Assembly (NCBI GenBank): GCA_964356325.1
Contig: CAYHHL010000006.1
Coordinates: 6,536 to 70,535 of the forward strand
DNA from: an uncultured Enterobacteriaceae bacterium
Lineage (GTDB): Bacteria > Myxococcota_A > UBA9042
Reading direction: 5' to 3'
Length of the DNA stretch: 64,000 bases
Position numbers and translations under genes: made by a program. Shown in pieces: positions 15,572-56,070 of this stretch (the first letter of the stretch is position 1; every line of letters begins with the position of its first letter). The notes under the pieces are model-generated. The model saw only the letters and a list, made by a program, of their open reading frames with translations. It ran no database searches and was not told where the DNA came from.

Positions 15572-16150
15572 ATGACACTGGAAATGACGGGGCAAGACAT
15601 GGACGGAAGCGGGAATCAGACCGATGCGCCGATGCAGCGTGTGTCCAGCCGTTTGGTGCACAAGACGCCCTGGCTCGGCGTGCGCGAGGATCAGGTGCGC
15701 ATGGCCGACGGTCGCCAAAGTGCCTACACGGTCATCGAATGCGGCCATTGCGTGGGCGTGCTGCCGCTGCTCGAGGACGGTACCGTGCTGATGGTGCGCC
15801 AGTACCGTTACGTCGCGGGGTGTTACACGTGGGAGATGCCGACGGGAGGCGTGCGCCCGGGCGAGTCGTTCACTGACGCGGCGCAGCGTGAATTGGCCGA
15901 AGAGGCAGGGCACCGCGCCGGGACGCTGATTCCGTTGTCGGTCTACCACACCAGCAAGAGTTCCATCGACGAGACCGCGCACCTCTACCTCGGCCGTGAC
16001 CTGGTGCCGGCGAGCGCGACCGCGGACGAGGACGAGCAGATCGACGTGACGGCGATGCCTCTGGCGCGCGTGCTGCGGATGGTGCTGGATGGCGAGATCA
16101 CCGATAGCATGACCATCATTGCCGTGCTGCACGCCGTGCGCCTTGCCTGA
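15572..16150 (+). CDS. NUDIX hydrolase (ADP-ribose pyrophosphatase-like)
   Basis: The Nudix box GGVRPGESFTDAAQRELAEEAG is present. The start is 2 nt after the upstream stop. Confidence 0.8.
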   Translation: MTLEMTGQDMDGSGNQTDAPMQRVSSRLVHKTPWLGVREDQVRMADGRQSAYTVIECGHCVGVLPLLEDGTVLMVRQYRYVAGCYTWEMPTGGVRPGESFTDAAQRELAEEAGHRAGTLIPLSVYHTSKSSIDETAHLYLGRDLVPASATADEDEQIDVTAMPLARVLRMVLDGEITDSMTIIAVLHAVRLA

Positions 16151-32444: not shown

Positions 32445-32570
32445 AGCTTTGACCACGACCCGGTGTGGTATGGGCTACGCAGATGGTGTAGGTTGGCAGC
32501 ACACTGCGGAACGGCCGTTTCGCAGCGCGTGCCGGGGCCTGCTCATGTGCGGCCAGACGGGAGGTATGCG

Positions 32571-37781: not shown

Positions 37782-38003
37782 ATGCACAGATTCCGCCTGG
37801 CAGCGCTCGCCGCGATCCTCAGCGTGGCGACCTCGCTGGGTGGTTGCGCGGCGGTCCAACCGTGGCAGCGCGGCCGTCTCAGCCAACCGGCGATGCAACT
37901 CAGCCCACGCCTGGGCGCGGAATTCCAGTCGCACCTGCGCCCCGTGCGCGAGGGCGCCATCGGCGGCGAGGGCGGGGCCGGCGGCGGCTGCGGCTGCAAC
38001 TGA
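37782..38003 (+). CDS. DUF4266-family small lipoprotein
   Basis: MHRFRLAALAAILSVATSLGGCAAVQPWQRGRLSQPAMQLSPRLGAEFQSHLRPVREGAIGGEGGAGGGCGCN. It has a lipobox, and the characteristic GGGCGCN C-terminus recalled for this family. Confidence 0.65.
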   Translation: MHRFRLAALAAILSVATSLGGCAAVQPWQRGRLSQPAMQLSPRLGAEFQSHLRPVREGAIGGEGGAGGGCGCN

Positions 38004-38023
38004 CGGTCGTGCAAGGGCATCGC

Positions 38024-39148
38024 TTACAAGTCCACGGAGACGGCGGCCTGTAGCACGGTCGCGATCGTGTCGGCCATGGGCACGAAGCGGTCCCCGTCCA
38101 CGGTGCGGAAGTCATCGTAACGCGTCCAGATCAGCATGCCCTGCGCCAGCAATTCGACGACACGCCACTTCCAGCGCAAGTTGAGGTCAACCGCATTGGA
38201 CCATTGGCCGGTCAGGCGCCTATCGCGGGTGATGTAGGCGCGGTCCACAGTGTACATCGAGCGGTAGAAGCTGGCTCGCGACTGCCAGTACAGCCGATTG
38301 GCGAGTTCGATTTCCAAGCCGTGGCCGACATCGAGGGTGGCGCCGAGTTCACCGGTGTTGCTGCGAATCGCCCAAGTATCGAGATAGCCGCGGTAAGTCG
38401 CGCGCAAGAACAGCGACCGACCGACGGCTTGGCGGCCTTCGAGCGTCAAACCGTGGCGGGTGCGGCTGTCCGGGTGGCGCTCGGCGACCCACTGCGCCTG
38501 ACTGTGCAGCCAAAGCGCGGGGTCACGCGGCACCAGCGGCACCAGGCGGTAGGGGCTCGATTGGAACCCGTCGACCAGCGCGAGCGTATATGCCACTGAA
38601 ACTATAGTGGAACGCGTGACGATTTGGCTGACCGTGGCGTCGAGACGGTGGCTCAGGCGGTCATGCCACAGCGACTCGGGCTGGCGCAGGCTGCCCAGGC
38701 GGTCCATGCCCAGACCATAGCTGAGCGCCAGTGTTAGGTTGCGCGCGAACAGCTCGGTCTGGCCGCCGGCCACCAAGGCGTGGCTGTGCGTGTCGTTCTC
38801 GGTGCTGTAGGTGTAGCCGGTATGGCCACGCCAGCCGTCGCGGTCGTAGTTGAGTTGGAAGCCCGCCTCCTTGCGCACCTCTTGGAAGCTCGGGCTGGCG
38901 CCGGAAACCATGTCGACCGATGCCGCGGTGATGAAGTCGGTGCGCACCGTGGCCTGGACGGAAGTGGATCCGAGGATCTGCTGGCGCGCCTCGAGCCACG
39001 GGCTGATGACGCTCAAGCCATCGTTATTGCTGTACACCGCCGTCCCGGTCGCTCCGTGCGTGGCCAGGCCTTCACCGTGTGCGCTGCCCGACAACGCCGA
39101 CCAGACGGCACAGCCTGCGAAAGCGGCCCGCCCGCCCCACCGGCTCAC
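38024..39148 (-). CDS. DUF3570-like outer-membrane beta-barrel candidate
   Basis: A GTG at 39146-39148 overlaps the upstream stop (GTGA). A signal-like AAFAGCAVWSALSGSAHG is followed by aromatic-rich, alternating beta sequence. The family assignment comes from pattern recall only. Confidence 0.5.
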   Translation of the reverse strand: MSRWGGRAAFAGCAVWSALSGSAHGEGLATHGATGTAVYSNNDGLSVISPWLEARQQILGSTSVQATVRTDFITAASVDMVSGASPSFQEVRKEAGFQLNYDRDGWRGHTGYTYSTENDTHSHALVAGGQTELFARNLTLALSYGLGMDRLGSLRQPESLWHDRLSHRLDATVSQIVTRSTIVSVAYTLALVDGFQSSPYRLVPLVPRDPALWLHSQAQWVAERHPDSRTRHGLTLEGRQAVGRSLFLRATYRGYLDTWAIRSNTGELGATLDVGHGLEIELANRLYWQSRASFYRSMYTVDRAYITRDRRLTGQWSNAVDLNLRWKWRVVELLAQGMLIWTRYDDFRTVDGDRFVPMADTIATVLQAAVSVDL

Positions 39149-39693
39149 TTCAGTCCCCCGGAGATCCAACCTTCCAGGGCCTTGTACGCCGGTTGGCTGC
39201 GGTCCGGGAACACGATCAAGCCATCGGCGTGGACGATGCCGCCCTGCTTGGGATCCAGGCATTTGAGCAGCAAAGCACTGTTCGCGGCCGACGTCTCGTT
39301 ACGCAAGCGCATGCACAAAGCTTCGTAGTTCCAAGACAACTCAGCATCGGTCAGGTGCTTCTCGTCGAGCGGCGTGTCCGAAAAGGCCGGAGGCGCGCGC
39401 AGGTAATCGACGGCGTACAGCGTCAGGCTGCTGCCGAGCTTGCCGTGGCAGGCGGCAAAGGCGCAACTGTGGCCGATCACAGGCTGGATCTTGGTCACGA
39501 ACACGCTGAAGTCGGCAACGGGCAATGGCGTGTACGGATTATCGACTGACGGGCAGGCAGTGGCAGTCACGGCGAGCCCGGTCAAGATCACGAAAAGCGC
39601 AGCTTGGCGACCGACTTGCGGCCACGGCGCGTCCCGCCGCTCAGTTGTCTGGGCGCATGGGGGACGCTGGACTTTCGGGTCGGTGGCACGCAT
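39145..39693 (-). CDS. Monohaem c-type lipoprotein with a PSCyt1-like C-terminus
   Basis: ALFVILTGLAVTATACPSVD has a lipobox. CAFAACHG is the haem motif. ...AYKALEGWISGGLK is the C-terminus. The true start is probably an internal GTG near 39615. Confidence 0.55.
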   Translation of the reverse strand: MRATDPKVQRPPCAQTTERRDAPWPQVGRQAALFVILTGLAVTATACPSVDNPYTPLPVADFSVFVTKIQPVIGHSCAFAACHGKLGSSLTLYAVDYLRAPPAFSDTPLDEKHLTDAELSWNYEALCMRLRNETSAANSALLLKCLDPKQGGIVHADGLIVFPDRSQPAYKALEGWISGGLK

Positions 39694-39740
39694 GGGCAGC
39701 CGTGGCGGCGTGGTGGTGGCGCCGCGTTGGTGAGGGTGGC

Positions 39741-42146
39741 ATGCTTCGGCGCGCGGCAGCGCCCTTTGCGGGGCTTCTCATTGCTGGTTTCGCGGGGCTT
39801 CTCATGGCTCGTGTCCCCGTCCCCTCCGGTTGCCGGCACCCTGGCGTCGACGTCGTGCGATGCTACGAGAAGCGGTGCGGCCGTGCAATCGCGCGCCTGG
39901 CGCTGCTGACCCTGCTCGCCGTGGCGGCTCTTGCCTGCGAGACGACGCCGACCGCCGCGGCGCGGGGCCCGACTGAAGGCTGCAACACTTCAAAATGCCA
40001 CGCAGAAATCGAGCAGATCCACTACGGTGGCCCGGCTCTGAGCTGCGTCGACTGTCACGGCGGCGATCCGCGGGCGACGACCAAGGCCGGTGCGCACGTC
40101 ACGGTGGACACGTCGTTGAACCCCTCGACGCCGGGCAAGCATTTCCTCGACGATCCCTCGCTGGCCGAACTCGCGCAGGCTTCGACCGAGGTGCTGCAGT
40201 TCCTCAACCCAGCGGATTATCGAGTTGTTTTAAGGACATGTGGCAGCACCACGCTGGCGGGCGGCGGTTGTCACTCGATCATCACGAACAACAGCCTGCT
40301 GCTCAACCGGGCGACGCTGGCAGGGCAATTGGCAGGCGGTGGCTTCATCGCCGGAACTCAGGGCAAGCAGCCGCACTATGGCATCGTGCCCGTGCAGGAT
40401 CGCTTCGTGCCCGCACAGCCGCCGCCGGGTACCGTCACCCACTTGGACCCGCTTCCGGCCGACCCACCCGCCACGGCGACCTCGGTGACTGCCAAGGCAT
40501 TCTACCCTGTCTACGAGCAGTTGTGCGCCGATTGCCACCTCGGGCGTGAGGGTTCCAAGGTGCCAGGGCGCTACTACTCGGCGGGCTGCAACGGCTGCCA
40601 CATGACCACCGCGGACGAGTCGCGCACGGCGACGGCCGACCCGACGCAGAACCGCGACGAGGCCGGTCACCCGCTCAAGCACCGATTCACCAACCTCATT
40701 CCCGACAGCCAGTGCGCGCATTGCCACATTTCGCACCTGGGCCGATCGCTGCTGGCACGCGGTGTGCGCGAGCGCTCCGAGCCCGAGGGCGACACGCTGA
40801 TGGGCGGCAAGAACACGGGTGCCGCCGATCCGCCCAACGCCGTGCCGTGGGGCAAGGAGAACTACGTCAAGTCCAAGGGCATGTTGTGGCAATACGGCAA
40901 GCCGTGGCCGTACTTCCTGGAGGATGAGGACGGCAGCAACGCCACGGACGAGACGCCACCCGACATCCACACGCAAATGGGCTTGGCCTGCATCGATTGC
41001 CACAACATGCGGGAAGCCCACGGTTCAGGCCGGGCCCAGGTGCGCATGGACCAGGAACTCGACGTGCGTTGCCAAAGTTGCCACGGCCGGCCGGGAGAGA
41101 AAGCCAAGCTGATGTCCGACTCGGGCATCACTTTTGACCAGGCGGGGACGGGCAAGGGCTCGGACGGCGCCAACCCGCAGACGGTCAAGGTCATCGGCGA
41201 TGGGAGCGTGCAGCAGCGCGACAAGCTGACCGGTGGACTGCATCCGGTCACGCAGATCACGCAACGTACTGATCCGAATGCCAAGCTGTACAATCCGCGC
41301 ACGCGCATGGGCTGCCAACTCCACGCGGGGACGGCGGCGGCGCGTCAGGCTCTCAAGGCCGAGTTCGCCGCGCTGGCTGCCCAGGATCCGGCGGCGGCGC
41401 AGAAGCAGTTTCCGGGCGTGCCGCCGGGCTTCCAGTTCGACGCCGTGGCTGTGGAGTCCGACGGCCGCACCGAATGCTTTGCCTGCCACAATGCCTGGAC
41501 GGTCAACTGCTACGGTTGCCACATGGTGCGCGACGACCGCGAGACCTACATCAGCCGGGTAAGCGGCGAGAAGCGGGTGGGCAAGGTCAAGTCCTTTGGT
41601 CTCAGCGTGATGGCCGACGCTCTCGCGCTGGGCTTCAACAGCCGAGGCCGTATCACGCCGCTGGTCGGGACCTCGATCTTCTTCACCCACATCGACGCTG
41701 CCGGCAACAAGGTCATCGATGCCGCGCCGTTGACCACGGGCGAAGGCCTGAGCGGCGACGGTAACGTTCACAACCCTGTGCACCATCACACGATTCAGAA
41801 GCAGCCTCGCGATTGCACCGGCTGCCATCCAGCGGCGGATGGCGCCGACAACGTGACGGCGGTACTGCGCGCGATCGGCTTGGGCACCGGCCAGTTCACG
41901 TTCGCCGATGGTGCTGGGCGGACCCACTGGCTCGACAGGCTGATCGTCGGTGACTACGATGGCGACGGCAAGCCGGACGACCCCATCGCGCTCGGGTTGC
42001 CCTCGTCGCTGGCGAGCGTGAAGCGCGTGGTCGGCACGACGCACATGCAGCTACCAGGCATGTCCGGAGGCCAACAGCCGGGACCGCTCGACGTCGAAAC
42101 AGTCAATCGCATCCTGAAGAACAAAGTGTTGCCGCAGCGGCCCTGA
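39741..42146 (+). CDS. Large multihaem c-type cytochrome lipoprotein (~11 CxxCH/CxnCH)
   Basis: There are two candidate signal peptides. One is MLRRAAAPFAGLLIAGFAGLLMA. The other is RLALLTLLAVAALACETTP, which carries a lipobox. The haem motifs are CNTSKCH, CVDCH, C(x9)CH, CADCH, CNGCH, CAHCH, CIDCH, CQSCH, CFACH, CYGCH and CTGCH. The start is uncertain (39741 to 39870). Confidence 0.75.
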   Translation: MLRRAAAPFAGLLIAGFAGLLMARVPVPSGCRHPGVDVVRCYEKRCGRAIARLALLTLLAVAALACETTPTAAARGPTEGCNTSKCHAEIEQIHYGGPALSCVDCHGGDPRATTKAGAHVTVDTSLNPSTPGKHFLDDPSLAELAQASTEVLQFLNPADYRVVLRTCGSTTLAGGGCHSIITNNSLLLNRATLAGQLAGGGFIAGTQGKQPHYGIVPVQDRFVPAQPPPGTVTHLDPLPADPPATATSVTAKAFYPVYEQLCADCHLGREGSKVPGRYYSAGCNGCHMTTADESRTATADPTQNRDEAGHPLKHRFTNLIPDSQCAHCHISHLGRSLLARGVRERSEPEGDTLMGGKNTGAADPPNAVPWGKENYVKSKGMLWQYGKPWPYFLEDEDGSNATDETPPDIHTQMGLACIDCHNMREAHGSGRAQVRMDQELDVRCQSCHGRPGEKAKLMSDSGITFDQAGTGKGSDGANPQTVKVIGDGSVQQRDKLTGGLHPVTQITQRTDPNAKLYNPRTRMGCQLHAGTAAARQALKAEFAALAAQDPAAAQKQFPGVPPGFQFDAVAVESDGRTECFACHNAWTVNCYGCHMVRDDRETYISRVSGEKRVGKVKSFGLSVMADALALGFNSRGRITPLVGTSIFFTHIDAAGNKVIDAAPLTTGEGLSGDGNVHNPVHHHTIQKQPRDCTGCHPAADGADNVTAVLRAIGLGTGQFTFADGAGRTHWLDRLIVGDYDGDGKPDDPIALGLPSSLASVKRVVGTTHMQLPGMSGGQQPGPLDVETVNRILKNKVLPQRP

Positions 42147-42164: not shown

Positions 42165-42995
42165 ATGAAACGCTTGCTGCAATGCCTGGCGCTGACCTGG
42201 GGTCTGGCGGGCTGCGAGTCCAATCCGGAGCCGAGCGAGCCGGCGATCCAGGTCGAGACGCTGCCGGAGATGGCCGGCGCACCTACCAGCGTGGTCGATG
42301 GCCGTCTGACTTGCCTGGGCAAGGCCCCGGCGGCGGCCACTGCGGGCGCGCTGGAATTGACTGGCTACGTACGCACGCTGGCCGATCCCGAAGCGAAACT
42401 ACCGCCACCCGCGGCCAAGGTCGGCCTGTTCACCGCTGACGGCACGGAACTGGCCAGCGGTTTTGCCGACGCGGCCAAGGCCGGCCGTGTCTCGATCTCG
42501 GTGCCGGTCAAGGCTCAAGGCTTCGAAGGCTACGCGCTCGTGCAGCAACAAGGCTTCCTGGACTGGCGCTTCCAGACCAGCCGGCCGGTGACGACTACCG
42601 ACCTCACCGGCTGGGCTTGGCTGACCACACAGGGCGAGGTCGACACGCGAGCCAAGGCGCTGGGTTTCACGCTCAAGGCCAGCGCCGGCATCCTGGTCGG
42701 CGCCGTCCATGATTGTGACAGCTTCGGCGCGGCCAACGCCGTGGTCGTCGTCGGCGATGCGGGCGGCAACCCCGTGTATTACGTCGAAGGCTTCGATCTA
42801 GTGGCGGTACGTCCCTACACCAGCACCAGTGGCCGCTTCGTCGCTGCCAACCTCGCGCCGGGCACCGTGCAGGTCAAGGCGTTCGGGCGTACCAAAGTGG
42901 GCGGCCCGCTGGAACTCTTGTCCTCGGCGCGGGTCGTGATCGAGGCAGGCCGCATCACCGCCGTCGATCTCGCGCCGCGCACAGGCATCAAGTGA
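42165..42995 (+). CDS. Lipoprotein, hypothetical
   Basis: MKRLLQCLALTWGLAGCESNPEP has a lipobox. It lies 18 nt after the cytochrome stop. Confidence 0.55.
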   Translation: MKRLLQCLALTWGLAGCESNPEPSEPAIQVETLPEMAGAPTSVVDGRLTCLGKAPAAATAGALELTGYVRTLADPEAKLPPPAAKVGLFTADGTELASGFADAAKAGRVSISVPVKAQGFEGYALVQQQGFLDWRFQTSRPVTTTDLTGWAWLTTQGEVDTRAKALGFTLKASAGILVGAVHDCDSFGAANAVVVVGDAGGNPVYYVEGFDLVAVRPYTSTSGRFVAANLAPGTVQVKAFGRTKVGGPLELLSSARVVIEAGRITAVDLAPRTGIK

Positions 42996-44275
42996 CGCCT
43001 GGCTCAGATGCGAGGCGCTGGCACGCCGCGCCTCCGTTGGCCGCCGGTCTGTCTGCGCTGGCCATCTGCGCTGCGGGCTTCGACATCACACCTGACATGC
43101 CCGCTACGAACCTGTTCCCTTTGCTGTATTATCCGCTGCTGGTGCTGAGTCTCGGCACCGCCTGGTGGGTCTGGCGCCATCCGCGCTGCATCGGTTTTGC
43201 CACGGTGTTGGCGTTTGCCCTGGCGTTCCGTCTGCTTGCTGCCGCGGAACCGCCCTCGCTGTCGAGCGATGTCTACCGCTACGCCTGGGACGGCCACGTG
43301 CAGCGCGCCGGCATCAGCCCTTACGCCCACGCCCCTGGCGATGCCGCGTTGGCGCCGTTGCGCGATGCCGCGATCTACCCGCACATCAACCGCAAACAGG
43401 CGCACACGGTCTATCCGCCGGGCGCGCAGGTGCTGTTCCTGGCGCTGCCCTTTGGCCTGGACGCGGTCCGCCTGGCGATGATCGCCTTGGATCTGCTGAC
43501 GATCGTGCTGCTCGGCCGGCTCTTGCGCGATCTGGGCCAGGATCCGGCGCGCGCGCTGCTTTACGCCTGGTCGCCGCTCGCGATCTACGAAATCGGCAAC
43601 GGCGGCCATCTCGAGGCGGCGGTGCTGCCGTTGCTGCTGGGCGCGGTGCTGGCGTGGCGTGCAGGGCGCTGGCGGACGGTCGGGCTGCTGCTCGGCGGCG
43701 CGGCCTCGCTCAAACTGTATCCGCTGTTGCTCGGCAGTGTTCTGGCGCCGCCACGCTGGTTGCGCGTGCTCGGCCCGGCCGCGGTATTGCTGGGTGTCGT
43801 GTACTTCGCCTATGGCCTCGCGGCGGGCGTGGGCGTGCTGGGCTTCCTGCCGCAGTACCTCGGATCGGCTGAGGATCACAACAACGGACTGCGCGCGCTG
43901 TTCGAGTGGACCCTCGGCCCGCTGCCGGCGCAGTACCGGCGCCCGTTGGCGTTTGCCCTGTGCCTGGTCGCGATGGTGACCCTGATGCGCAAGGCGGCGC
44001 GCGCTGATGTGGCCATCGAACACAAGATTCGCGACCTTGCGGGCATCTACTTGGTGACGGTACCCACGGCGCTGCACCCCTGGTACGCGCTCTGGCTCGT
44101 GCCGTGGCTGTGCATCGCGCCGCACGCCGGGTGGCTGTGGCTGGTGGCGACCGTGCCGCTCTCGTACCTCAAATACGCCAGCCCCGGCGGGGTGATGCCG
44201 GCGTGGGTGATGCCGCTGGAGTTCGTGCCGACCGGAGTGCTGCTGGCGTGGCCGATGTGGCGGCGGCCGGCATGA
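42992..44275 (+). CDS. DUF2029/GT87-like polytopic membrane glycosyltransferase (polyprenol-phosphate-sugar dependent, GT-C-like)
   Basis: It has about 10 TM segments. SSDVYRYAWDGHV is the DUF2029-type periplasmic loop motif. The start overlaps the previous stop (ATGA). Confidence 0.65.
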   Translation: MTPGSDARRWHAAPPLAAGLSALAICAAGFDITPDMPATNLFPLLYYPLLVLSLGTAWWVWRHPRCIGFATVLAFALAFRLLAAAEPPSLSSDVYRYAWDGHVQRAGISPYAHAPGDAALAPLRDAAIYPHINRKQAHTVYPPGAQVLFLALPFGLDAVRLAMIALDLLTIVLLGRLLRDLGQDPARALLYAWSPLAIYEIGNGGHLEAAVLPLLLGAVLAWRAGRWRTVGLLLGGAASLKLYPLLLGSVLAPPRWLRVLGPAAVLLGVVYFAYGLAAGVGVLGFLPQYLGSAEDHNNGLRALFEWTLGPLPAQYRRPLAFALCLVAMVTLMRKAARADVAIEHKIRDLAGIYLVTVPTALHPWYALWLVPWLCIAPHAGWLWLVATVPLSYLKYASPGGVMPAWVMPLEFVPTGVLLAWPMWRRPA

Positions 44276-45723
44276 GCCTGTGGTCCGCCGTAGCCTTGCT
44301 GCCTTACCTCGGACTGCTAGCCGTGATGCTGGCTTACAGCGCCCACAGCCTGGTGCTGGTGATCGTCCACGCCCGCTCGCCGGCCCGCCGCCGAGAGTCG
44401 TGGCCATCGCCAGGAACCGAGCCGCACGTCGTTGTGCAATTGCCAGTGTACAATGAGGAAAATGTCGTCGCGCGGCTCCTGGATGCCGTTGCCGCTTTGG
44501 ATTGGCCACCCGACCGGCTGACCATCCAACTGCTCGACGACTCGACCGATGCCACCGCCGCGCTGGCCGAGCCGTGCGTCGCGCGGATGCAAGAGGCGGG
44601 TCTGCGCGTCCAACACCTGCGGCGGGCCCAGCGGCACGGCTTCAAGGCCGGCGCGCTGGCGCATGGCTTGGCGCAAACCGACGCCGCGTTCTTCGCCATC
44701 TTTGACGCCGACTTCGTACCGCCGCCCGACTTCTTGCGCCGCGCGCTGCCGCACTTCGCCGACCCGAGCATCGCCGCGGTCCAGGGCCGCTGGACGCATC
44801 TGAACCGCGACTGGTCGAGCCTGACGCGCGCTCAGGCCCTGGCCATCGACGGTCATTTCGCCATCGAGCAGGAGGCCCGCTTTCGCGCCGGCTGGTTCCT
44901 CAACTTCAACGGCAGCGCGGGGGTATGGCGGCGCGCGGCGATCGAGGCGGCCGGCGGCTGGTCGGCGGACACCTTGACCGAGGATCTGGACCTTTCCTAC
45001 CGCGCGCAGCTGTGCGGTTGGCGCCTCGCGTTCGATCGCGATCTCACATGCCCCGCCGAATTACCGAGTACTCTGGCTGCCTTCAAGGCTCAGCAACGGC
45101 GCTGGGCAACCGGGTCGATGCAGACGGCGCGCAAGCTCCTGCCGGCGATCTGGCAGAGCCGAACGAGCCTGGCCGCGCGACTGGCGGCGACGCTGCACCT
45201 GACGCACTACGCCGTGCACCCATTGCTGGCGACGACCGCGCTGCTGTCGATTCCGTGCGTTCTGCTGCCAGGGCTGTTGGCGCCCCCGGGGCCTCTGTGG
45301 GGTGTGCTGCTGCCGTTCGGCCTGGCGATGGTCGGGCCCACAGCGCTGTATCTGTACGCGCGCCGGGTGCTCGGGTTGCCGATCGCGCCGGCGCTGCGCG
45401 ATCTCGGCACGCTGACCCTGGTGGGCGTGGGCATCGCCGTCAGCAATGGTCGCGCGGTGTTGCGCGCCTTCCAGCGGCGGCAGATCCCATTCGAGCGAAC
45501 GCCCAAGCTGGGAGAGCCAGGCGACTGCATCCGCCAGCGCTATCCGGTGACCGCGGACGGCCTCGCGCGCATGGAGCTGGCCCTGGCGCTGTATTGCCTG
45601 TGCGCCGCGCTGGGACTGCTGTGGACTGGGGTGTATGCGGTGGCGCCCTTCCTGCTTCTGGACGCCGCCGGGTTCGGCTATGTAGCGGTGCGCGGCGCTG
45701 CAAGTGACCAGGAGCGTTGGTGA
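44272..45723 (+). CDS. Family-2 membrane glycosyltransferase (processive, cellulose-synthase-like fold)
   Basis: VVQLPVYNEENVV ... LLDDSTD ... FDADFVPPPDF ... QQRRWATG is a QxxRW motif. C-terminal TM helices follow. ATGA overlap with the previous gene. Confidence 0.8.
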   Translation: MSLWSAVALLPYLGLLAVMLAYSAHSLVLVIVHARSPARRRESWPSPGTEPHVVVQLPVYNEENVVARLLDAVAALDWPPDRLTIQLLDDSTDATAALAEPCVARMQEAGLRVQHLRRAQRHGFKAGALAHGLAQTDAAFFAIFDADFVPPPDFLRRALPHFADPSIAAVQGRWTHLNRDWSSLTRAQALAIDGHFAIEQEARFRAGWFLNFNGSAGVWRRAAIEAAGGWSADTLTEDLDLSYRAQLCGWRLAFDRDLTCPAELPSTLAAFKAQQRRWATGSMQTARKLLPAIWQSRTSLAARLAATLHLTHYAVHPLLATTALLSIPCVLLPGLLAPPGPLWGVLLPFGLAMVGPTALYLYARRVLGLPIAPALRDLGTLTLVGVGIAVSNGRAVLRAFQRRQIPFERTPKLGEPGDCIRQRYPVTADGLARMELALALYCLCAALGLLWTGVYAVAPFLLLDAAGFGYVAVRGAASDQERW

Positions 45724-46412
45724 AGATCGTCGCCATCCTGCCCGCGCTGAACGAGGCCGCCACCGTCGGAGCGGTGGTTCGTGGCCTCCGAGACTTCGTC
45801 GCGGCAGTGGTCGTGGTCGACGGCGGCAGTAGCGACGACACCTGCGCCCAAGCCCGCGCCGCCGGAGCCGAAGTCGTCGTCGAACCACGCCCCGGCTACG
45901 GCCGCGCCTGCCGCGCTGGCGTCGCCTTCGCCACGGACTCGAGTGCCGAGGTCGTCGCCTTTCTCGACGCCTCCAGCGCCACCTATCCGGAGGACCTGCG
46001 CGCCGTGCTGGCACCGATCCTGAACGGCGGGTTCGACTTCGTGCTCGGCTCACGTGTCAGCGGTCAGGCCGAACCGGGCTCGCTGCGCCCCTTGCAGCGC
46101 GCTGGCAACCGACTTGCCACCCAGCTCATCGCCTGGCTGCACGGCCACGCCTACAGCGATCTCGGCTCGATGCGCGCCATCCGCCTGGGTTGTCTCGCCA
46201 CCCTCGAAATGCAAGAATCCGCGCACGGCTGGCCCGCCGAGATGCAGGTCAAGGCGGCGCGGCGCGGCCTGCGCATCTGCGAGGTGCCCATCCGCTACCG
46301 CCGTCGCCGCGCGGGTCGGTCCAAGGTGTCCGGCACGGCCATCGGCTCGCTGCGGGCGGGTTTCGCCATCTTGCGCGTCGTGCTCACGGGCGCGCGAACA
46401 CGCGGCAACTAG
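45717..46412 (+). CDS. Family-2 glycosyltransferase, polyprenol-phosphate sugar synthase-like (DPM1/GtrB-type)
   Basis: VKIVAILPALNEAATVGAVV ... VVVVDGGSSDDT ... the length and motifs match DPM1/ArnC-type GT2 enzymes. Confidence 0.7.
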   Translation: MVKIVAILPALNEAATVGAVVRGLRDFVAAVVVVDGGSSDDTCAQARAAGAEVVVEPRPGYGRACRAGVAFATDSSAEVVAFLDASSATYPEDLRAVLAPILNGGFDFVLGSRVSGQAEPGSLRPLQRAGNRLATQLIAWLHGHAYSDLGSMRAIRLGCLATLEMQESAHGWPAEMQVKAARRGLRICEVPIRYRRRRAGRSKVSGTAIGSLRAGFAILRVVLTGARTRGN

Positions 46413-46486: not shown

Positions 46487-48121
46487 ATGCACGCCAAGGC
46501 CGCGGTCGCCATCATCAGCAAAGTGCCGCGTCCCGGGCGATCCAAGACGCGTCTGGCCCGGACGCTCGGCTTGCCGGCGGCGCTGGACCTGCACCGCGCA
46601 TTCCTGGCCGATGAACTGCGTCAGTTGCACGCCCCGGATTGCTGGCGGCTCGTGTTCATCCACGATGCCATTGAAACTGCACAAGAAGTAGAGGAACTCG
46701 CCAGCCTCGTCGCCGGTCGCGCCGACTACGTGGTGCCGGGCAAGCGCGATCTCGCTCACGAACTTCTCGAAGCGTTTCGCCTGCTGCTTGCCGAACACGA
46801 GCGCGTGGTCATCGTCAGCGGCGATGTGCCGCACATCGATCCGGAACTGGTGGCGCGCGCGTTGGCGGCGCTCGATACCGCCGATCTGGTGCTGGGTCCC
46901 GGACCGGATGGCGGCTACTACCTCGTCGGGCTCAAGGTGCCGCACGACGTCTTCACTACGATTCCGATGGGTACCGCTGCGGTCGAGAAGGCGACCGTGG
47001 CCGCGGCGCAGCGACTGGGCCTGCAGGTGGCGCACATCGAGGCGATGGTCGATCTGGACGAGGCCCAGGATCTGCTTGCGCTCGAGGCGATGGCACCTGG
47101 GCTTGCCCAAGCGACGCGCGCGGTGGTGGCGCAACTCGGGCGTACCGATCTGAGCGCGACCCTGCCAACCGAGCTCCAGGTCGAGGTCACCAGCCGTTGC
47201 AACCTGCGCTGTTCAGCCTGCCTGATCACCCACGAAACGCTGGCGCCGGATGCGGATCTCGACATGGCGGATTGGCATCGCATCGTCGATGGCCTGCCGA
47301 ACCTTGGCCGCGTGGCCTTCCAGCTCAACGGTGAACCGCTTCTGTGTCGCGACGTATTCGCCATGATCGCGGACGCAGTGGCTCGCGGTGCCACTACGGT
47401 GATGAATACCAACGGCCTGCTTCTCGACGAACAGCGCCGTGTCGGAGTGCTGAGCAGCGGCCTGCATGAACTGCGCGTGTCGCTGGACGGCGCCAGGCCA
47501 CAAACCGTGCTTGAGATGGCAGGCGCGGATATCCTGGGCGCCGTGACGCGCCGCGTGCGCGAAATGGTCCAGGCTCGCGGCTCGGCGACCCTGCCTCGCA
47601 TCAGCCTGTGGATGGTGGCGACGCGGCTCAATATCGAGGAACTGCCAGATCTCGTGCGCCTGGCAGCTGAGCTGGGGGTCGAGGAAGTCTACGCCCAACG
47701 CCTGGTGCTGACCGGCCACGGGGTGGCGCAACGAGCGTACTCACTGCACGGCCGGAGCGGACCGCTGCTGCGCGACGTGGTGGCGCGCGCCGAGGCCATT
47801 GCGGCCGAAACCGGAGTGGCCTTGCGGGCATCGGGCAGGCAGCCGATCCTGGAGAGCTTCGCCGCCTCGGACGACCCGCATCCGCAGCGGGGTTGCTGGC
47901 GGCCCTGGCGCAGCGCTGTGGTGACTGCATCGCTGAAGGTGCTGCCGTGTTGCATCGCCAGCTTCACGCAGTCCTACGCCGAGTTGGAACTGGGCGATCT
48001 GCGAACGCAAACGTGGTCGGACATTTGGAACGGCGCCGCCTATCGACGGTTGCGCAACGGCCTCCTGGACGGCCCGCCGCAGCGCGGATGCCGCGACTGT
48101 GGCAAGGAGTGGAGCCTGTGA
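46487..48121 (+). CDS. Fusion protein: DUF2064 (TIGR04282-type glycosyltransferase-like nucleotidyltransferase fold) + radical SAM with a C-terminal SPASM domain
   Basis: The N-terminus is AAVAIISKVPRPGRSKTRLARTLG ... GDVPHIDPE ... GPGPDGGYYLVGL. The C-terminus has VEVTSRCNLRCSACL (CxxxCxxC), then CWRPWRSAVVTASLKVLPCCIAS ... GCRDCG (SPASM cysteines). Confidence 0.75.
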   Translation: MHAKAAVAIISKVPRPGRSKTRLARTLGLPAALDLHRAFLADELRQLHAPDCWRLVFIHDAIETAQEVEELASLVAGRADYVVPGKRDLAHELLEAFRLLLAEHERVVIVSGDVPHIDPELVARALAALDTADLVLGPGPDGGYYLVGLKVPHDVFTTIPMGTAAVEKATVAAAQRLGLQVAHIEAMVDLDEAQDLLALEAMAPGLAQATRAVVAQLGRTDLSATLPTELQVEVTSRCNLRCSACLITHETLAPDADLDMADWHRIVDGLPNLGRVAFQLNGEPLLCRDVFAMIADAVARGATTVMNTNGLLLDEQRRVGVLSSGLHELRVSLDGARPQTVLEMAGADILGAVTRRVREMVQARGSATLPRISLWMVATRLNIEELPDLVRLAAELGVEEVYAQRLVLTGHGVAQRAYSLHGRSGPLLRDVVARAEAIAAETGVALRASGRQPILESFAASDDPHPQRGCWRPWRSAVVTASLKVLPCCIASFTQSYAELELGDLRTQTWSDIWNGAAYRRLRNGLLDGPPQRGCRDCGKEWSL

Positions 48122-48135
48122 CTGCACCATCCGGC

Positions 48136-48906
48136 ATGTTCGGCAGGCCGCGCCCGGCACCGCATGGGCGCATGGCGCTCCTGATGGCGTCGACCTGCCT
48201 GATCGCAGCCTGCGTCGGCAGTGGCGAACTGCCGGCGACCCTGAGCGGCCAGATCGTCGGCGGGGACGATCGGCCGCTAGGTCCCGGACTGGTCCTGATC
48301 GAGCGCGGCAAAGTTCACGCCGGCGCCTATGAGGGCGGGACGCTCATCGACGCGCAAGGCAAGTTCAGCCTGCCTCTGCCAGGCGGCGGCACGTGGGGCA
48401 TCCACTTGTTCCACAGCGACTATTCCTACGTGCCCATCGAACTGACGATCGACCCGCACCAGCAAGTGGTGCTCACCAACATGATGGCCTCCTGGGGGGT
48501 GTGGCTGGACTTGACCGGGCAGCCGACCTGGCCCGATCAGCCCGACGACACCCGGCTGTTGCGCATGCCCGTCGATGACAACAAGGCCGACAACCCGGTG
48601 CTGTCCGACATCGAGATGACCTACCCGAGCAAGACGCTGATGCAGATCACGGCGCAGGCGTTCGATCCGGACGGCGACCTGTCGCGCATGGTCCTGGTGC
48701 ACGACACGGCCACGGGCGCCGGCTACGCTCTCAACCCGCCATCGCCGCCCGATGCCAAGGGTAACTACCCCAATGGTAAGTATTCGCTGAAGATATTCAT
48801 CGATCCCCGCCATGTGCCTGGGAAGTCGCTGTGGTACTTCGTCGTGTCCGACAACATGTGCAACAACACGCCGATCATGCCGGTCGCGATGCCTCCGCTG
48901 CCGTAA
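48136..48906 (+). CDS. Lipoprotein, hypothetical
   Basis: MFGRPRPAPHGRMALLMASTCLIAACVGSG has a lipobox. The mature part is beta-rich. It lies 14 nt after the radical SAM gene. Confidence 0.5.
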   Translation: MFGRPRPAPHGRMALLMASTCLIAACVGSGELPATLSGQIVGGDDRPLGPGLVLIERGKVHAGAYEGGTLIDAQGKFSLPLPGGGTWGIHLFHSDYSYVPIELTIDPHQQVVLTNMMASWGVWLDLTGQPTWPDQPDDTRLLRMPVDDNKADNPVLSDIEMTYPSKTLMQITAQAFDPDGDLSRMVLVHDTATGAGYALNPPSPPDAKGNYPNGKYSLKIFIDPRHVPGKSLWYFVVSDNMCNNTPIMPVAMPPLP

Positions 48907-52486: not shown

Positions 52487-53836
52487 ATGTCCCGCTTCGA
52501 TGCCCTGCTCAGACGCCTGTCGCGGCCGCAAGATCGTCTCCCGCCCGACCAACACCCCGGCTGGAAGGTACGCCTGCGCATGATGGCCCGCATTGCGTGG
52601 CGTTATGTGTGGGTCTACTTCGCCCTGCTGGCCCTGGCCGTGACGTGGGTCGCCGCTTCCGGCATGGACGTCTATCACCGCACGGAGATGCCCGAGTTTT
52701 GCGGGACTTGCCACGAGATGGGCGCCAACTTCGACACCTGGTCCAACTCCCGCCACGGCAGCATCCGCTGCATCGACTGCCATGCTCGCCCGGGCATCTC
52801 CGGCTGGGTCGCGGCCAAGATGGGCGGCATGTCGCAGCTGTACACTCACCTGACTGCGGATTCCATCAAGGATATCCACCTGCAGACGAAGCACGCCACC
52901 ATCGTCAGCGAAAACTGCTCGCGCTGCCACACCGACAGCGCGCGGGCGGGCGACCGTCACAGCCGTGCGATGGCCCATAGCCAGCACGCGGATCTGGGCA
53001 TACAGTGCGTCGCTTGTCATTCCGGCAATATAGCGCACCCGACCGCCGCCGAAGCGCGCGATTCGGTGGCAGGCCTGGTCGACGTCGGTACCTGCTTCAA
53101 GTGCCACGATGGCAAGCAAACGGTCGGCAAGAAGGTCGCATTTGCCGCGCGCGACGAGAAGTCGTGTGAGAAATGCCACCTGGATGCACACTTTGCCAAC
53201 CAGCATTTCGCGGGTGACAAGTCCGGCACCACGCACAAGCTTTGCCTGGACTGTCACGAGGCGCGTCCGGGGCAACCGCACTACGCCATGGACAAGCGAG
53301 ACCAGGGTCGCCTGTGTGCCAAGTGCCATGAACCGCCCAAGGATCTAGTGTCGACCCACAAGCCCTTCCGGGAGGGCAAGTGCGACGAGTGCCACCGCGT
53401 CATGACCCCGGCCTACCTGTTCCGTCACGGTCCGAAGCCGGACCAGGCGTTCTGTCTGCACTGTCATGATGATGTCGGCGCCGTCCTCGGCCTTGCCGAA
53501 CCCACGACACGGACAGCGTTTGCCGAGGCCAAGACCGACCTGCACCGCCAGCACGCCGACGACATCGGCAAAGCGACGCCCGACCTGTGCCTCAAGTGTC
53601 ATGCCGGCCACGGCAGCACCGCGCCACGCGGCCTGGTCCATCTGGCCCCGAGCGAGGACGGCGATGGCAAGCCGGGCCTCTTCAAGGCGACGAAAACTGG
53701 TGGCAGTTGCAGTGGAAGTTGTCACGGCGACGAGGCCGTCCGCTATGACCTGAATGGCAGCAAAGACGAAGACGAAGACGAAGAAGAAGCCAAGCCGGCC
53801 GCCGGCGCCAAGGTGCAAGAGGAGGTCGAACCATGA
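52487..53836 (+). CDS. Membrane-anchored NapC/NirT-like multihaem cytochrome c (12 CxxCH)
   Basis: An N-terminal TM anchor (WRYVWVYFALLALAVTWVAA) is followed by CGTCH and CIDCH in NapC/NirT spacing. Ten further haem motifs follow: CSRCH, CVACH, CFKCH, CEKCH, CLDCH, CAKCH, CDECH, CLHCH, CLKCH and CSGSCH. Confidence 0.8.
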   Translation: MSRFDALLRRLSRPQDRLPPDQHPGWKVRLRMMARIAWRYVWVYFALLALAVTWVAASGMDVYHRTEMPEFCGTCHEMGANFDTWSNSRHGSIRCIDCHARPGISGWVAAKMGGMSQLYTHLTADSIKDIHLQTKHATIVSENCSRCHTDSARAGDRHSRAMAHSQHADLGIQCVACHSGNIAHPTAAEARDSVAGLVDVGTCFKCHDGKQTVGKKVAFAARDEKSCEKCHLDAHFANQHFAGDKSGTTHKLCLDCHEARPGQPHYAMDKRDQGRLCAKCHEPPKDLVSTHKPFREGKCDECHRVMTPAYLFRHGPKPDQAFCLHCHDDVGAVLGLAEPTTRTAFAEAKTDLHRQHADDIGKATPDLCLKCHAGHGSTAPRGLVHLAPSEDGDGKPGLFKATKTGGSCSGSCHGDEAVRYDLNGSKDEDEDEEEAKPAAGAKVQEEVEP

Positions 53837-56070
53837 TTCACCGTCGCTTCCTGGTGTATTTCCTGGTGCTGTCGGCCATCACCGTGGTCGCGACGGTGGC
53901 TTTCGAAGCCTGGTCGTTCCGGCGCGCCATCGACCACTCCCTGAACCAGAACCTGCTGTTTGCACGCAGTGTCGCCCGCGTCGTGAGCGGTGCGGTCGAG
54001 CAGGAGAAGGCGCACCTCGAGCGTCTGCTGGACGCCGCGGGCAAGGACGCGGCGGATCCCAAGGCCTTGGCCGCCGACCTCAAGACGGTGCGGTTGGCTA
54101 CGCTGGACAAGGACGGCATGGCCCTGTTCGACGACAAACGTCAACTGCTGGCGGCAGATACCGATCCCGGGGGCCTGCCGCCGCCAGAAGTCCTGCTGCC
54201 AGCCCTGCGCCGGACCCAGGCATCGGGGCACGTGGTCGTGAGCGACCTGTGGAAGGGCATCGACCACAAGCCGCGCGTCGCCATCGTGCTCGGGCGCACG
54301 CTGGGGACCGGCGAGACGGCGGCGTGGCGGGCCGCGGTGGTCTACGTGCGCTTGGATGGCAAGAACTTCCAGCGCATCTTCGACAACTTCCTGGTCAACG
54401 AGCAGTCGCGGCTGCAACTGCTCGACTCGACGGGCGTGGCCCTGTACTCGACCTTGCCCCGGGAGCGCTTCCGTTCGGTGGTCCACGGCACCTACTTCAC
54501 GGACAAGGTACGGCTGGGCAACGCCGTGCAAATGCCCTGTCATTCCTGCCACAAGAACGGCGAGTCGGAGACGATTCGGCAAAGCGAGGTGACGACCGTG
54601 GCGCCCCTGGCCGGCATCGGCTGGACGGTGACCGTGCGCGAGGGCACGCGCGACCTGTACGCGCCGATGCGTGAGACCGTGTACACTTCGTCGGCACTGG
54701 TGTCCTTGATATTCGGCTGCTTTGTCGGCTTCTACGTCCTGTTGTCGCGGCGGGTTTTGAGGCCGATGCGTCAACTGGCGGAAACGGCGACGGCCTTGGC
54801 CCAGGACGCTGGCGCAACCCAGACCGGCTTTCGATCCCGGGATGAATTCGCCATGTTGTCGGAGTCCTTCGAGGCGATGCGGTCCCGTTCCACCGCCGCG
54901 AAGGACGCTTTGCCGAACAGCCCCATGCAGGCAGTCCACCGGCAACCCAGCGGGATCGTGGTCTCCGACCTGCGCAAGACCCTGAACGGCCTGGTCGATG
55001 GCGTTGCCAAGAGCAAGGCGGTGCGTTCCGTGGTCTTGCACCTGGACGGACCGGCGCTGGAGGAGGGCTTCTTCGCCTGCCAGGACATCGCCTTGCGTAG
55101 CGAGGGGCGGATCGGCGCGAGCCTGGATGCCGCGGCCGCCGGTCGGTCGCAGGTGAGCGTCGCCGACCTGGACAGCCGCGGAATCGCTGTCGAGAATGCT
55201 CACGAAACCAAGCTGTTCTACGTGCAGCGGATCCGCGTGGCCGACGCGCTGGACGGGGCGTTGTGGATCGGCGTCGCCGATGGCAGCGAGGAACTCGGGC
55301 GCTACCTTGGGCCGACGATGGCGCTCATCGCCAACCAGGTGCAATCGCTCATCGAACGCAGCCTGCTGCAGGACCAGCTGCGGGTGGAGCAGGCGCACAA
55401 GGATCGCATGCTGCGTCACCTGTTCGAGGCAGAAGCCGAGGAACGCAAGCGGATTGCTCGGGAAATCCACGACGGCACTGCGCAGGAACTGACGGCGCTG
55501 CTGCTGGTGCTGGAAACGCTACCCGACGGAGTGTCACCCGGCGACAAGGCCAACATGGAACGGGCCAAGAACCTGGTCGGCCAGATCCTCGATGGCATCA
55601 ACCGGCTGGTGCGGCGCTTGCGGCCGGCGGTGCTCGATGATCTCGGCCTCATCGAAGCCGTTCGCGCAACTGGGCAAAACCTCATGGAAACAGCGGGGAT
55701 CGGCTTCGATCTGGAAGTCGTCGGCGAGGATCTGATGGTGCCCAAGGACGTGGAAGACACGGTCTATCGCGTGTTCCAGGAAACCGCGACCAACGTCGTG
55801 CGCCACGCCGGTGCCACCCACGTCAAGATGCGCCTGCACTTGGAGCCCGAGCGGCTGATGGGCTGGATCGAGGACAACGGGCGCGGCATGGATCTGTCGT
55901 GGCTGGACGACATCGCCGCCCGACCCCGTTGGGGCCTGCTCGGCGTGCGCGAGCGTATCGTCCAGGCGGGTGGTACGATTGACTTCATGACGCCGGCCTC
56001 GGGTGGCCTGCGCATCGTATTCGAAGTGCCGCTCACCCTGAATATGTACGCGAAAGTGGCGCAAGCCTGA
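53833..56070 (+). CDS. Sensor histidine kinase (NarX/HisKA_3 type) with a periplasmic haem-c (CxxCH) sensor domain
   Basis: TM1 is FLVYFLVLSAITVVATVAF. The periplasmic domain contains MPCHSCHK. TM2 and HAMP are ...VSLIFGCFVGFYVLLSRRVLRPMRQLAETATALAQ. The H-box is ERKRIAREIHDGTAQELTAL. HATPase is ETATNVVRHAGATHVKMRLH...EDNGRGMD. ATGA overlap with the upstream gene. Confidence 0.85.
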   Translation: MIHRRFLVYFLVLSAITVVATVAFEAWSFRRAIDHSLNQNLLFARSVARVVSGAVEQEKAHLERLLDAAGKDAADPKALAADLKTVRLATLDKDGMALFDDKRQLLAADTDPGGLPPPEVLLPALRRTQASGHVVVSDLWKGIDHKPRVAIVLGRTLGTGETAAWRAAVVYVRLDGKNFQRIFDNFLVNEQSRLQLLDSTGVALYSTLPRERFRSVVHGTYFTDKVRLGNAVQMPCHSCHKNGESETIRQSEVTTVAPLAGIGWTVTVREGTRDLYAPMRETVYTSSALVSLIFGCFVGFYVLLSRRVLRPMRQLAETATALAQDAGATQTGFRSRDEFAMLSESFEAMRSRSTAAKDALPNSPMQAVHRQPSGIVVSDLRKTLNGLVDGVAKSKAVRSVVLHLDGPALEEGFFACQDIALRSEGRIGASLDAAAAGRSQVSVADLDSRGIAVENAHETKLFYVQRIRVADALDGALWIGVADGSEELGRYLGPTMALIANQVQSLIERSLLQDQLRVEQAHKDRMLRHLFEAEAEERKRIAREIHDGTAQELTALLLVLETLPDGVSPGDKANMERAKNLVGQILDGINRLVRRLRPAVLDDLGLIEAVRATGQNLMETAGIGFDLEVVGEDLMVPKDVEDTVYRVFQETATNVVRHAGATHVKMRLHLEPERLMGWIEDNGRGMDLSWLDDIAARPRWGLLGVRERIVQAGGTIDFMTPASGGLRIVFEVPLTLNMYAKVAQA

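Follow-up and report, generated by a model that had tools for sequence, protein, structure and literature searches.

The 64,000-nucleotide stretch of an uncultured Myxococcota_A bacterium analysed here (the window; contig CAYHHL010000006.1) carries on its forward strand a gene in which a DUF2064/TIGR04282-like domain is joined in frame to a radical S-adenosylmethionine (SAM) domain. Its open reading frame (ORF) encodes 544 amino acids (aa) without interruption from the ATG at 46487 to the TGA at 48119-48121, and this ATG is preferred to the start of a longer ORF at TTG 46190 because homologues begin at the same position. An earlier description made from the letters alone (the sequence-only reading) had reported a single fusion ORF with characteristic motifs of both families, and coordinates and motifs are all where it placed them (Table 1).

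The gene fusion is genuine and conserved; it is no artefact and instead marks a pathway that is still uncharacterised. The same architecture, which the sequence-only reading proposed to look for in other genomes, is found among metagenomic homologues in 54 clusters at 90% identity, with a length of about 544 aa and 51-100% identity to the window protein. Nine species representatives of GTDB carry it too, almost all of them under the labels uncultured Myxococcales, Polyangiaceae or Deltaproteobacteria, and an identical protein is present on a second, independent contig. The inter-domain linker is conserved in fused homologues (D189, D191, D195, L196, R219, P227), the GC content at third codon positions is flat across the domain junction (0.78-0.79), and an alignment of 30 sequences gave a confident AlphaFold model of the two domains as one unit (pLDDT 90.8, pTM 0.85). 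The possibility of a frameshift or assembly error had been raised with the original description; a frameshift is excluded because more than 50 independent metagenomic homologues, 51-77% identical, keep the length and architecture, and with the second contig, the linker, the model and the uniform base composition an artefact of any kind, whether frameshift, chimeric assembly or mis-called ORF, has next to no probability. Only about five 50%-identity clusters among 1.84 billion representatives have the full-length fused architecture, against hundreds of stand-alone relatives of about 340 aa in the same library, and the fusion is therefore lineage-specific. Public annotation of the fused proteins is limited to 'DUF2064 domain-containing protein'.

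Domains of the fusion protein

The N-terminal domain is a member of DUF2064, with PF09837 matched over aa 46-163 (E 1.6e-20; 73.6 bits, gathering score 25.8). CofC (PF01983) also matches above its gathering score at aa 12-216 (30.9 against 22 bits), and the NCBIfam hypothetical equivalog TIGR04282 is narrowly missed at 128.3 bits against a cutoff of 134; of the joint DUF2064/TIGR04282 assignment made at the outset, the first part stands and the second falls just short. 3CGX, the sole DUF2064 structure, leads both the structural and the sequence matches (E 6e-30), and the next structures are CofC (2I5E), FbiD (6BWH/6BWG) and 3-phosphoglycerate guanylyltransferase (7P97). When aligned with CofC by phmmer, GDVPH with D113 falls on ADLP, and VDLDEAQDL with D189 and D191 falls on DIDEPEDL. 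The three-Asp Mg/phosphate motif of FbiD is kept in the domain, with conservation of its residues across the family at 90% or more. In FbiD, D116, D188 and D190 bind two Mg2+ and the substrate phosphate, and both FbiD and CofC are inactive without the partner FbiA (PMC6450877). Fold and motif together suggest that the N-domain activates a phosphorylated small molecule as a nucleotidyltransferase. It resembles the CofC/FbiD/MobA type and is not a proven glycosyltransferase, so that the label 'glycosyltransferase-like' given to it from the letters alone has to be replaced.

The resemblance to MobA and to CofC/FbiD, which act in F420 synthesis as phosphoenolpyruvate or 2-phospholactate guanylyltransferases, extends to the fold, a KxRL-type N-terminal motif and the three-Asp site, and the partner-enzyme dependence of CofC/FbiD is echoed by the covalent fusion. 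Unlike CofC/FbiD, the N-domain scores 41.6 bits to TIGR03552 against an equivalog cutoff of 105, and no CofD/FbiA-type or other F420 gene was seen in the cassette. For DUF2064/TIGR04282 at large there is the crystal structure 3CGX, and the labels 'glycosyltransferase' and 'arsenosugar' derive from context alone; a literature search returned no publication on DUF2064, only incidental mentions of TIGR04282 and nothing usable on ArsS with an arsenosugar glycosyltransferase. The mycobacterial genes Rv0539-Rv0541c may be a trio of a family 2 glycosyltransferase (GT2), DUF2064 and a glycosyltransferase of the GT-C fold; the literature search gave nothing usable on them either, and they carry no weight here.

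The C-terminal part is a radical SAM enzyme, as had been claimed from its CxxxCxxC motif: CNLRCSAC lies within a PF04055 domain (aa 232-392) and is invariant in 30 of 30 sequences. Near the C-terminus, C470, C488, C489, C535 and C538 are invariant in the fused family in the 30-sequence alignment. C470, C488, C535 and C538 are also invariant across 20 diverse relatives, with C489 kept in the closer ones, and in a phmmer alignment they fall one to one on BtrN positions 169, 187, 232 and 235, the reported ligands of the single auxiliary cluster of that enzyme (Goldman et al. 2013). Only five C-terminal cysteines are conserved and the chain stops six residues past C538; the distal half of the 7-Cys SPASM motif is therefore missing. 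A full 7-Cys SPASM domain with two auxiliary clusters is thus rejected by the absence of the distal CxxCxxxxxCxxxC...C half, despite a PF13186 match (aa 470-538, 47.2 bits), and the C-terminal cluster, which the sequence-only reading had called SPASM, is instead a one-cluster Twitch (half-SPASM) domain of the BtrN type. BtrN is the best solved relative in profile searches (7.6e-21 versus 6e-13 for PqqE) and oxidises the secondary alcohol of an aminocyclitol (PMC9012708). Foldseek neighbours include the carbohydrate-modifying DesII, BtrN and BlsE and also the peptide maturases SuiB, CteB and SkfB. There is no NCBIfam equivalog for the radical SAM part, the best being TIGR04311 at 110 bits against 400, and Pfam finds no PqqD/RRE domain on the fusion protein.

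Table 1. Features of the fusion gene, its cassette and a related distant gene, in window positions
Feature	Position	Strand	Description
Fusion gene	46487..48121	+	544 aa, DUF2064/TIGR04282-like + radical SAM/Twitch; predicted soluble, cytoplasmic
N-domain, aa 1-215	46487..47131	+	CofC/MobA-like nucleotidyltransferase fold; PF09837 and PF01983 above gathering score
PRPGRSKTRL	46526-46555	+	N-domain motif, read from sequence
SGDVPH	46817-46834	+	N-domain motif, read from sequence; holds D113
PDGGYY	46904-46921	+	N-domain motif, read from sequence
DLDEAQDL	47051-47074	+	N-domain motif; holds D189/D191/D195
Radical SAM core + Twitch domain, aa 216-544	47132..48121	+	Pfam; profile and phmmer alignment to BtrN
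CNLRCSAC (C238/C242/C245)	47198-47221	+	CxxxCxxC SAM-cluster motif
C-x17-CC-x45-CxxC (C470, C488, C489, C535, C538)	47894-48100	+	Auxiliary-cluster Cys and extra C489
Multihaem c-type cytochrome	39525..42146	+	9 CxxCH + 1 CX4CH (CNTSKCH); first cassette gene
Lipoprotein 'lipo'	42165..42995	+	276 aa, lipobox LAGC
GT-C fold glycosyltransferase (GT87 / MptA_B)	42992..44275	+	427 aa, polytopic; Pfam, transmembrane-like segments
GT2L, membrane GT2	44272..45723	+	483 aa; Pfam, NCBIfam, transmembrane-like segments
GT2S, small GT2	45717..46412	+	231 aa; resembles AglJ, dolichyl-P-hexose transferase, PpgS; without membrane anchor
Lipoprotein 'down' (MALLMASTCLIAAC)	48172..48906	+	244 aa, conserved
NudE-like Nudix hydrolase	15614..16141	+	30 kb upstream of fusion; 54% identical to split-locus Nudix gene

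Fused cassettes and split loci

The fusion is the sixth gene of a co-directional set of overlapping or closely spaced genes, and all fused loci that were inspected, at identities as low as 52%, repeat the order of this cassette. The true start of the multihaem cytochrome probably lies downstream of 39525, and the protein is weakly similar to ExtM of the selenite/tellurite-reduction operon (143 bits against a cutoff of 800). The GT-C assignment rests on GT87/MptA_B Pfam matches found on the identical gene and on orthologues. GT2L carries the motifs of processive beta-glycan synthases, namely D (LLDDSTD), DxD (FDADF), TED (TLTEDLD) and QxxRW (QQRRW), and its best solved relative is BcsA. The NCBIfam scores of GT2S are 124 bits for AglJ (cutoff 325), 81 for the Dol-P-hexose transferase (375) and 63 for PpgS (370); it is kept beside the fusion and also in loci where the two halves are separate, and is a candidate polyprenyl-phosphate sugar synthase. 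Orthologues of 'lipo' have a weak CarboxypepD_reg-like beta-sandwich match, and the 'down' lipoprotein has an alternative start at GTG 48118 that overlaps the stop codon of the fusion. The two lipoproteins were considered as paralogues, and no paralogy is detectable.

In many other loci the orthologous radical SAM protein and a stand-alone TIGR04282 protein are encoded by separate, mostly adjacent genes. These split loci belong to Methylomirabilota/Rokubacteria, Eremiobacterota and other soil metagenomes, and they independently support a functional link between the two halves of the fusion. The sequence-only reading had pointed to such an arrangement, with DUF2064 genes beside radical SAM genes; the adjacency is there, and the radical SAM partner associated with TIGR04282, ArsS/TIGR04167, is a different family and is not present. 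In a Candidatus Baltobacteraceae (Eremiobacterota) locus, L021, the order is NDH-2, HAMP-HD, DoxD-like, rSAM2, Twitch radical SAM, GT87, GT2S, DUF2064 and Nudix, where rSAM2 denotes the second radical SAM/SPASM gene of split loci and the Twitch enzyme is the orthologue, at 40% identity; L092 has a similar order. The stand-alone DUF2064 partners pass the TIGR04282 cutoff, with 193.8 bits in L021 and 187.2 bits in a second case. The Nudix gene following DUF2064 in split loci is NudE-like, a type that hydrolyses ADP compounds (nucleoside diphosphate-linked, NDP-X), and the window homologue, being 54% identical to the one directly after a stand-alone DUF2064, probably belongs to the same system in dispersed form.

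When metagenomes were scanned with the unfused orthologues as seeds, 80 loci were obtained, apparently mostly from soil, and these were mapped with hidden Markov models (HMMs) of the cassette proteins. Typical orders are rSAM2-rSAM-DUF2064-DoxD-GT87-GT2L and rSAM2-rSAM-DUF2064-Nudix-methyltransferases-cupin-GT87-GT2S, and L119 and L125 have GT2S-rSAM2-rSAM-DoxD-GT87-GT2L-dihaem cytochrome-'down'-DUF2064-Nudix. Two SAM-dependent methyltransferases and a cupin lie between DUF2064-Nudix and GT87-GT2S in L126 (4415-5960), L127, L134, L140 and L142. Co-occurrence was counted in the 43 loci flanked by 3 kb or more, and the resulting shares are lower bounds as the contigs are short: GT87 accompanies the split radical SAM gene in 77%, rSAM2 in 74%, the DoxD-like gene in 67%, any GT2 in 63% and DUF2064 in 60%. 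The unfused radical SAM protein is very abundant (more than 3,500 90%-identity clusters at E<=1e-40), and its named clusters come from metagenome-assembled genomes of Rokubacteria/Methylomirabilota. A Gaiellaceae homologue that is 37% identical (L007) has no glycosyltransferase context, which limits functional inference to relatives at about 40% identity or more.

Cytochromes recur in the split loci in another form. A dihaem c-type cytochrome of about 220 aa (W..SPDP.NPVACATCHHDP and a second CxxCH; for example L119:14420-15092) lies between GT2L and a 'down'-like lipoprotein in 7 of 11 informative loci (L119, L113, L125, L146, L156, L157, L092). A common origin with the Myxococcota multihaem cytochrome was considered, and no homology between the two is detectable; c-type cytochromes are therefore associated with the system twice, in unrelated forms.

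A proposed tailored sugar for glycosylation in the periplasm, and rival readings

The domain identities, the motifs, the conservation of the fusion and the fused and split neighbourhoods are established, and from them we infer every catalytic step that follows. With roughly even odds, the fusion protein produces a nucleotide-activated sugar and modifies it by radical chemistry for use in periplasmic glycosylation, as a soluble bifunctional enzyme of an envelope-glycoconjugate pathway; the suggestion of a sugar-nucleotide-type substrate in the sequence-only reading is thereby the one we favour. On the strength of its fold and motifs, the CofC/FbiD/MobA-like N-domain would use a nucleoside triphosphate and two Mg2+ held by D113, D189 and D191 to attach a nucleotide to a phosphorylated small molecule, which is most probably a sugar phosphate, giving NDP-X. 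The BtrN-like Twitch enzyme would then cleave SAM at the C238/C242/C245 cluster and abstract a hydrogen from the sugar of NDP-X. The radical would be resolved by the single auxiliary [4Fe-4S] cluster (C470/C488/C535/C538) to yield a keto-sugar or, alternatively, the invariant C489 could serve as hydrogen donor and lead to epimerisation. In the fused protein, an NDP intermediate that is labile or scarce would be channelled from one domain to the other, comparable to the dependence of CofC/FbiD on a partner enzyme. The gene context suggests that GT2S would load the tailored sugar on polyprenyl phosphate and that, once flipped, it would be transferred in the periplasm by the GT87 GT-C enzyme, to the beta-glycan of the QxxRW-bearing GT2 or to the co-encoded lipoproteins or cytochrome.

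This scheme has counterparts in three-component periplasmic glycosylation, such as ArnC/ArnEF/ArnT with ArnA/B, GtrB/GtrA/Gtr(type), PpgS-Rv3632-Rv3779 and TfpW with DPA synthesis, in which tailoring of a nucleotide sugar takes place in the cytoplasm, its loading on polyprenyl phosphate is done by a small GT2 and its transfer outside the membrane by a GT-C enzyme. Here, too, GT2 and GT-C genes stand side by side with those of donor-making enzymes, whereas donor tailoring would fall to a radical SAM enzyme with a DUF2064 domain, and in place of a GtrA/ArnEF-type flippase, which the window lacks, there is in two-thirds of the counted split loci the DoxD-like protein with four transmembrane segments. 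By analogy, the system thus appears to resemble glycosylation of the Arn, Gtr and PpgS type with an added stage of radical SAM donor tailoring. Precedent for radical SAM enzymes that tailor nucleotide-linked sugars is provided by the top structural neighbours of the C-domain, DesII (TDP-sugar) and BlsE (cytosyl-sugar), but identity to them is 17-18%, and their auxiliary-cluster content and gene contexts differ. BtrN itself (2-deoxy-scyllo-inosamine dehydrogenase of butirosin synthesis; PDB 4M7T/4M7S) shares the Twitch domain, in which the Cys are spaced identically (C-x17-C ... C-x2-C), and the logic of a small-molecule, carbohydrate-like substrate, but the similarity amounts to only about 50-78 bits, the C-domain has 329 aa here against about 250, and the window protein has the additional invariant Cys489 and the fused nucleotidyltransferase-like domain. 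An orthologue of BtrN acting as a DOIA dehydrogenase was rejected on that low score and on a GT-C/GT2 context without aminoglycoside genes. The fusion system is not a member of the ArsS system, CofC, BtrN proper or the full-SPASM maturases.

A broader claim, which is put forward more tentatively, concerns the system as a whole. The two radical SAM enzymes, TIGR04282, NudE-like Nudix, DoxD-like protein, GT-C enzyme, processive GT2, c-type cytochrome and beta-sandwich lipoprotein of Methylomirabilota/Rokubacteria, Eremiobacterota and a Myxococcota clade could form a widespread, uncharacterised envelope system in uncultured soil phyla that makes a new lipid-linked sugar or glycoconjugate tailored by radical SAM chemistry, perhaps coupled to periplasmic cytochromes. 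Such coupling may consist in glycan anchoring or glycosylation of electron-transfer proteins, or in quinone-linked redox tailoring of the lipid-linked sugar.

Several observations weigh against a sugar-tailoring role of the fusion. GT2S reaches the polyprenyl-phosphate sugar synthases only below their curated cutoffs, and its best solved relatives, matched only over the N-terminal half, are the 3-phosphoglycerate-glycosylating enzymes GpgS and MpgS. In the window, no GtrA/ArnEF-type flippase candidate was found in the cassette, a second radical SAM gene is not detectable, and the HMM map located no DoxD-like gene and no NDH-2 gene. Among the radical SAM families of NCBIfam, those of putative metalloenzyme maturases come closest, and the recurring c-type cytochromes near the cluster are left unexplained by a glycan model. 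The nucleotidyl step also appears to be dispensable or supplied in trans, since the N-domain is lost or absent in some lineages. P0051, a member of the fused family (probably L017:7115-8746), retains an N-domain of fold length that has lost KTRL and the three aspartates (D113Q, D189E, D191H) and may be a pseudo-enzyme; L009 has an otherwise identical cassette with a stand-alone 329-aa radical SAM protein without DUF2064, and the N-domain is likewise missing in L005, L020 and P0057. The claim of the sequence-only reading that a covalent fusion ties the two activities to a common substrate is therefore retained in part: the split loci place both halves in one pathway, and the coupling is not obligate. 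No biochemical data on DUF2064 proteins or on the present radical SAM clade came out of the literature search.

These points bear on two other explanations, both kept alive by the recurrent multihaem and dihaem cytochromes, DoxD-like proteins and NDH-2. In the first, which is unlikely, the Twitch radical SAM enzyme (with rSAM2 where present) modifies the co-encoded cytochrome, the beta-sandwich lipoproteins or haem, and the glycosyltransferases decorate the same protein. Most SPASM/Twitch enzymes do act on peptides or proteins, but a single auxiliary cluster and the absence of an RRE/PqqD domain set the enzyme apart, and BtrN, its clear best solved relative, is a small-molecule enzyme, whereas the best NCBIfam matches point to maturation (TIGR04311 'putative metalloenzyme maturase', TIGR04317 'tungsten cofactor oxidoreductase maturase', PqqE, AhbD, NirJ). 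Every Myxococcota cassette is headed by a multihaem cytochrome, and the non-homologous dihaem cytochrome and 'down' lipoprotein follow GT2L in the informative split loci listed above; the association with cytochromes is nevertheless weaker than that with GT87, DUF2064 and GT2, and an in-cluster cytochrome is missing from L021 and many other loci. Relatives of the enzyme are also fused to sugar-tailoring enzymes, and no conserved small ORF accompanies it. A maturase of the SPASM type acting on RiPPs (peptides made by the ribosome and modified after translation) or other peptides was rejected separately, with no adjacent precursor peptide in about 90 loci and no RRE (PqqD-like) domain; the neighbouring precursor that the sequence-only reading suggested looking for did not appear, as ORFs of 20-69 aa matched only between near-identical loci.

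A rather unlikely alternative is a pathway for a small-molecule cofactor or nucleotide-derived metabolite, redox-active or lipid-linked and working with quinone/cytochrome electron transfer, which would be built in one CofC/MobA-like, two radical SAM and one Nudix step and to which GT2 sugars are added later. It would accommodate the CofC/MobA-like N-domain, the coupling of Nudix to DUF2064 and the recurrence of DoxD-like, NDH-2 and cytochrome genes, and the radical SAM domains show similarity at the level of MoaA, PqqE and MftC. GT2L scores 82-94 bits to MftF, which adds sugars in mycofactocin, but it carries the motifs of a processive synthase, and all of these similarities lie far below equivalog cutoffs. 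The most constant partner of the split radical SAM gene is moreover the GT-C enzyme, a user of lipid-phosphate-linked sugar donors, and a precursor peptide is lacking here as well.

The current NCBIfam name of TIGR04282, 'arsenosugar biosynthesis glycosyltransferase', would suggest arsenosugar or organoarsenical biosynthesis, and the N-domain does reach 128 bits to this family, with the split-locus partners above its cutoff. This is very improbable: TIGR04167 (ArsS) is not among the listed matches, the fused radical SAM domain is of the BtrN-like Twitch family, rSAM2 scores 28.7 bits to TIGR04167 against 300 and GT2S 41 bits to TIGR04283 against 182, and the cassette is centred on GT-C and GT2 envelope enzymes. 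The TIGR04282/TIGR04283/ArsS set is similar in placing a DUF2064 protein beside a small GT2, a radical SAM enzyme and a phosphohydrolase. It differs in that the window radical SAM enzyme has a BtrN-like Twitch and GT2S is AglJ/Dpm1-like and not TIGR04283, and in that the present system adds the GT-C enzyme, the processive GT2, rSAM2, the DoxD-like protein and cytochromes; nothing ties it to arsenic, although arsM was not sought across the whole window.

In the favoured reading, the fusion and the split loci would place DUF2064 in a CofC-like nucleotidyl activation upstream of radical sugar chemistry and GT-C glycosylation. The fusion physically ties DUF2064 to a BtrN-like radical SAM enzyme, the split neighbourhoods of thousands of soil-metagenome clusters back this link, and a single soluble, expressible protein offers a handle on both activities. 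The analysis also defines a system of 8-10 genes that is common in poorly known soil phyla and linked to c-type cytochromes; the literature search found no publication on this gene cluster.

Related fusions and other genes of the window

Radical SAM domains related to that of the window protein are fused to a variety of other partners. A second DUF2064-radical SAM family (P0081, P0086, P0092; L091:1018-2946) has members of 614-642 aa in which the 7-Cys SPASM domain is complete; with only 22-24% identity to the window protein, it probably represents an independent fusion event. GT2-radical SAM fusions (P0104, P0145, P0087) and GT2-DUF2064 fusions (P0078/P0097) occur, as do GT9-radical SAM fusions within an HldE/GmhA-like heptose cluster (P0068/P0069), a radical SAM-radical SAM-aminotransferase (class-III) fusion (P0141), a radical SAM domain fused to sulfotransferase and TPR (P0132), and tandem arrays that comprise two to three radical SAM/SPASM modules and reach about 1,400 aa. 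These fusion partners point to sugar tailoring, the same direction as the fusion in the window. P0126 also belongs to these multi-domain relatives of the radical SAM domain.

Further genes of the window and of the fused loci accompany the cassette. Tandem duplicated DUF7482-like genes are present at 31335-32441 and 32679-33791, and the segments 31335-35228 and 37857-39591 also hold 154-aa and 270-aa proteins of unknown function and a trio of DUF4266, DUF3570 and a 150-aa protein. The genes of these two segments keep their synteny with the cassette in L003, L005 and L009; in L005 the DUF3570/DUF4266 set adjoins the radical SAM gene without an N-domain, and in L003 a methyltransferase follows the 'down' gene. 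A second large multihaem cytochrome on the reverse strand (25246-28124) is 50% identical to a 737-aa cytochrome of L001 and is preceded by a CarboxypepD_reg-like protein, forming another pair of cytochrome and beta-sandwich protein in the window. On the forward strand at 52487-56070, a further multihaem cytochrome ORF with several CxxCH motifs is followed by an overlapping sensor histidine kinase gene.

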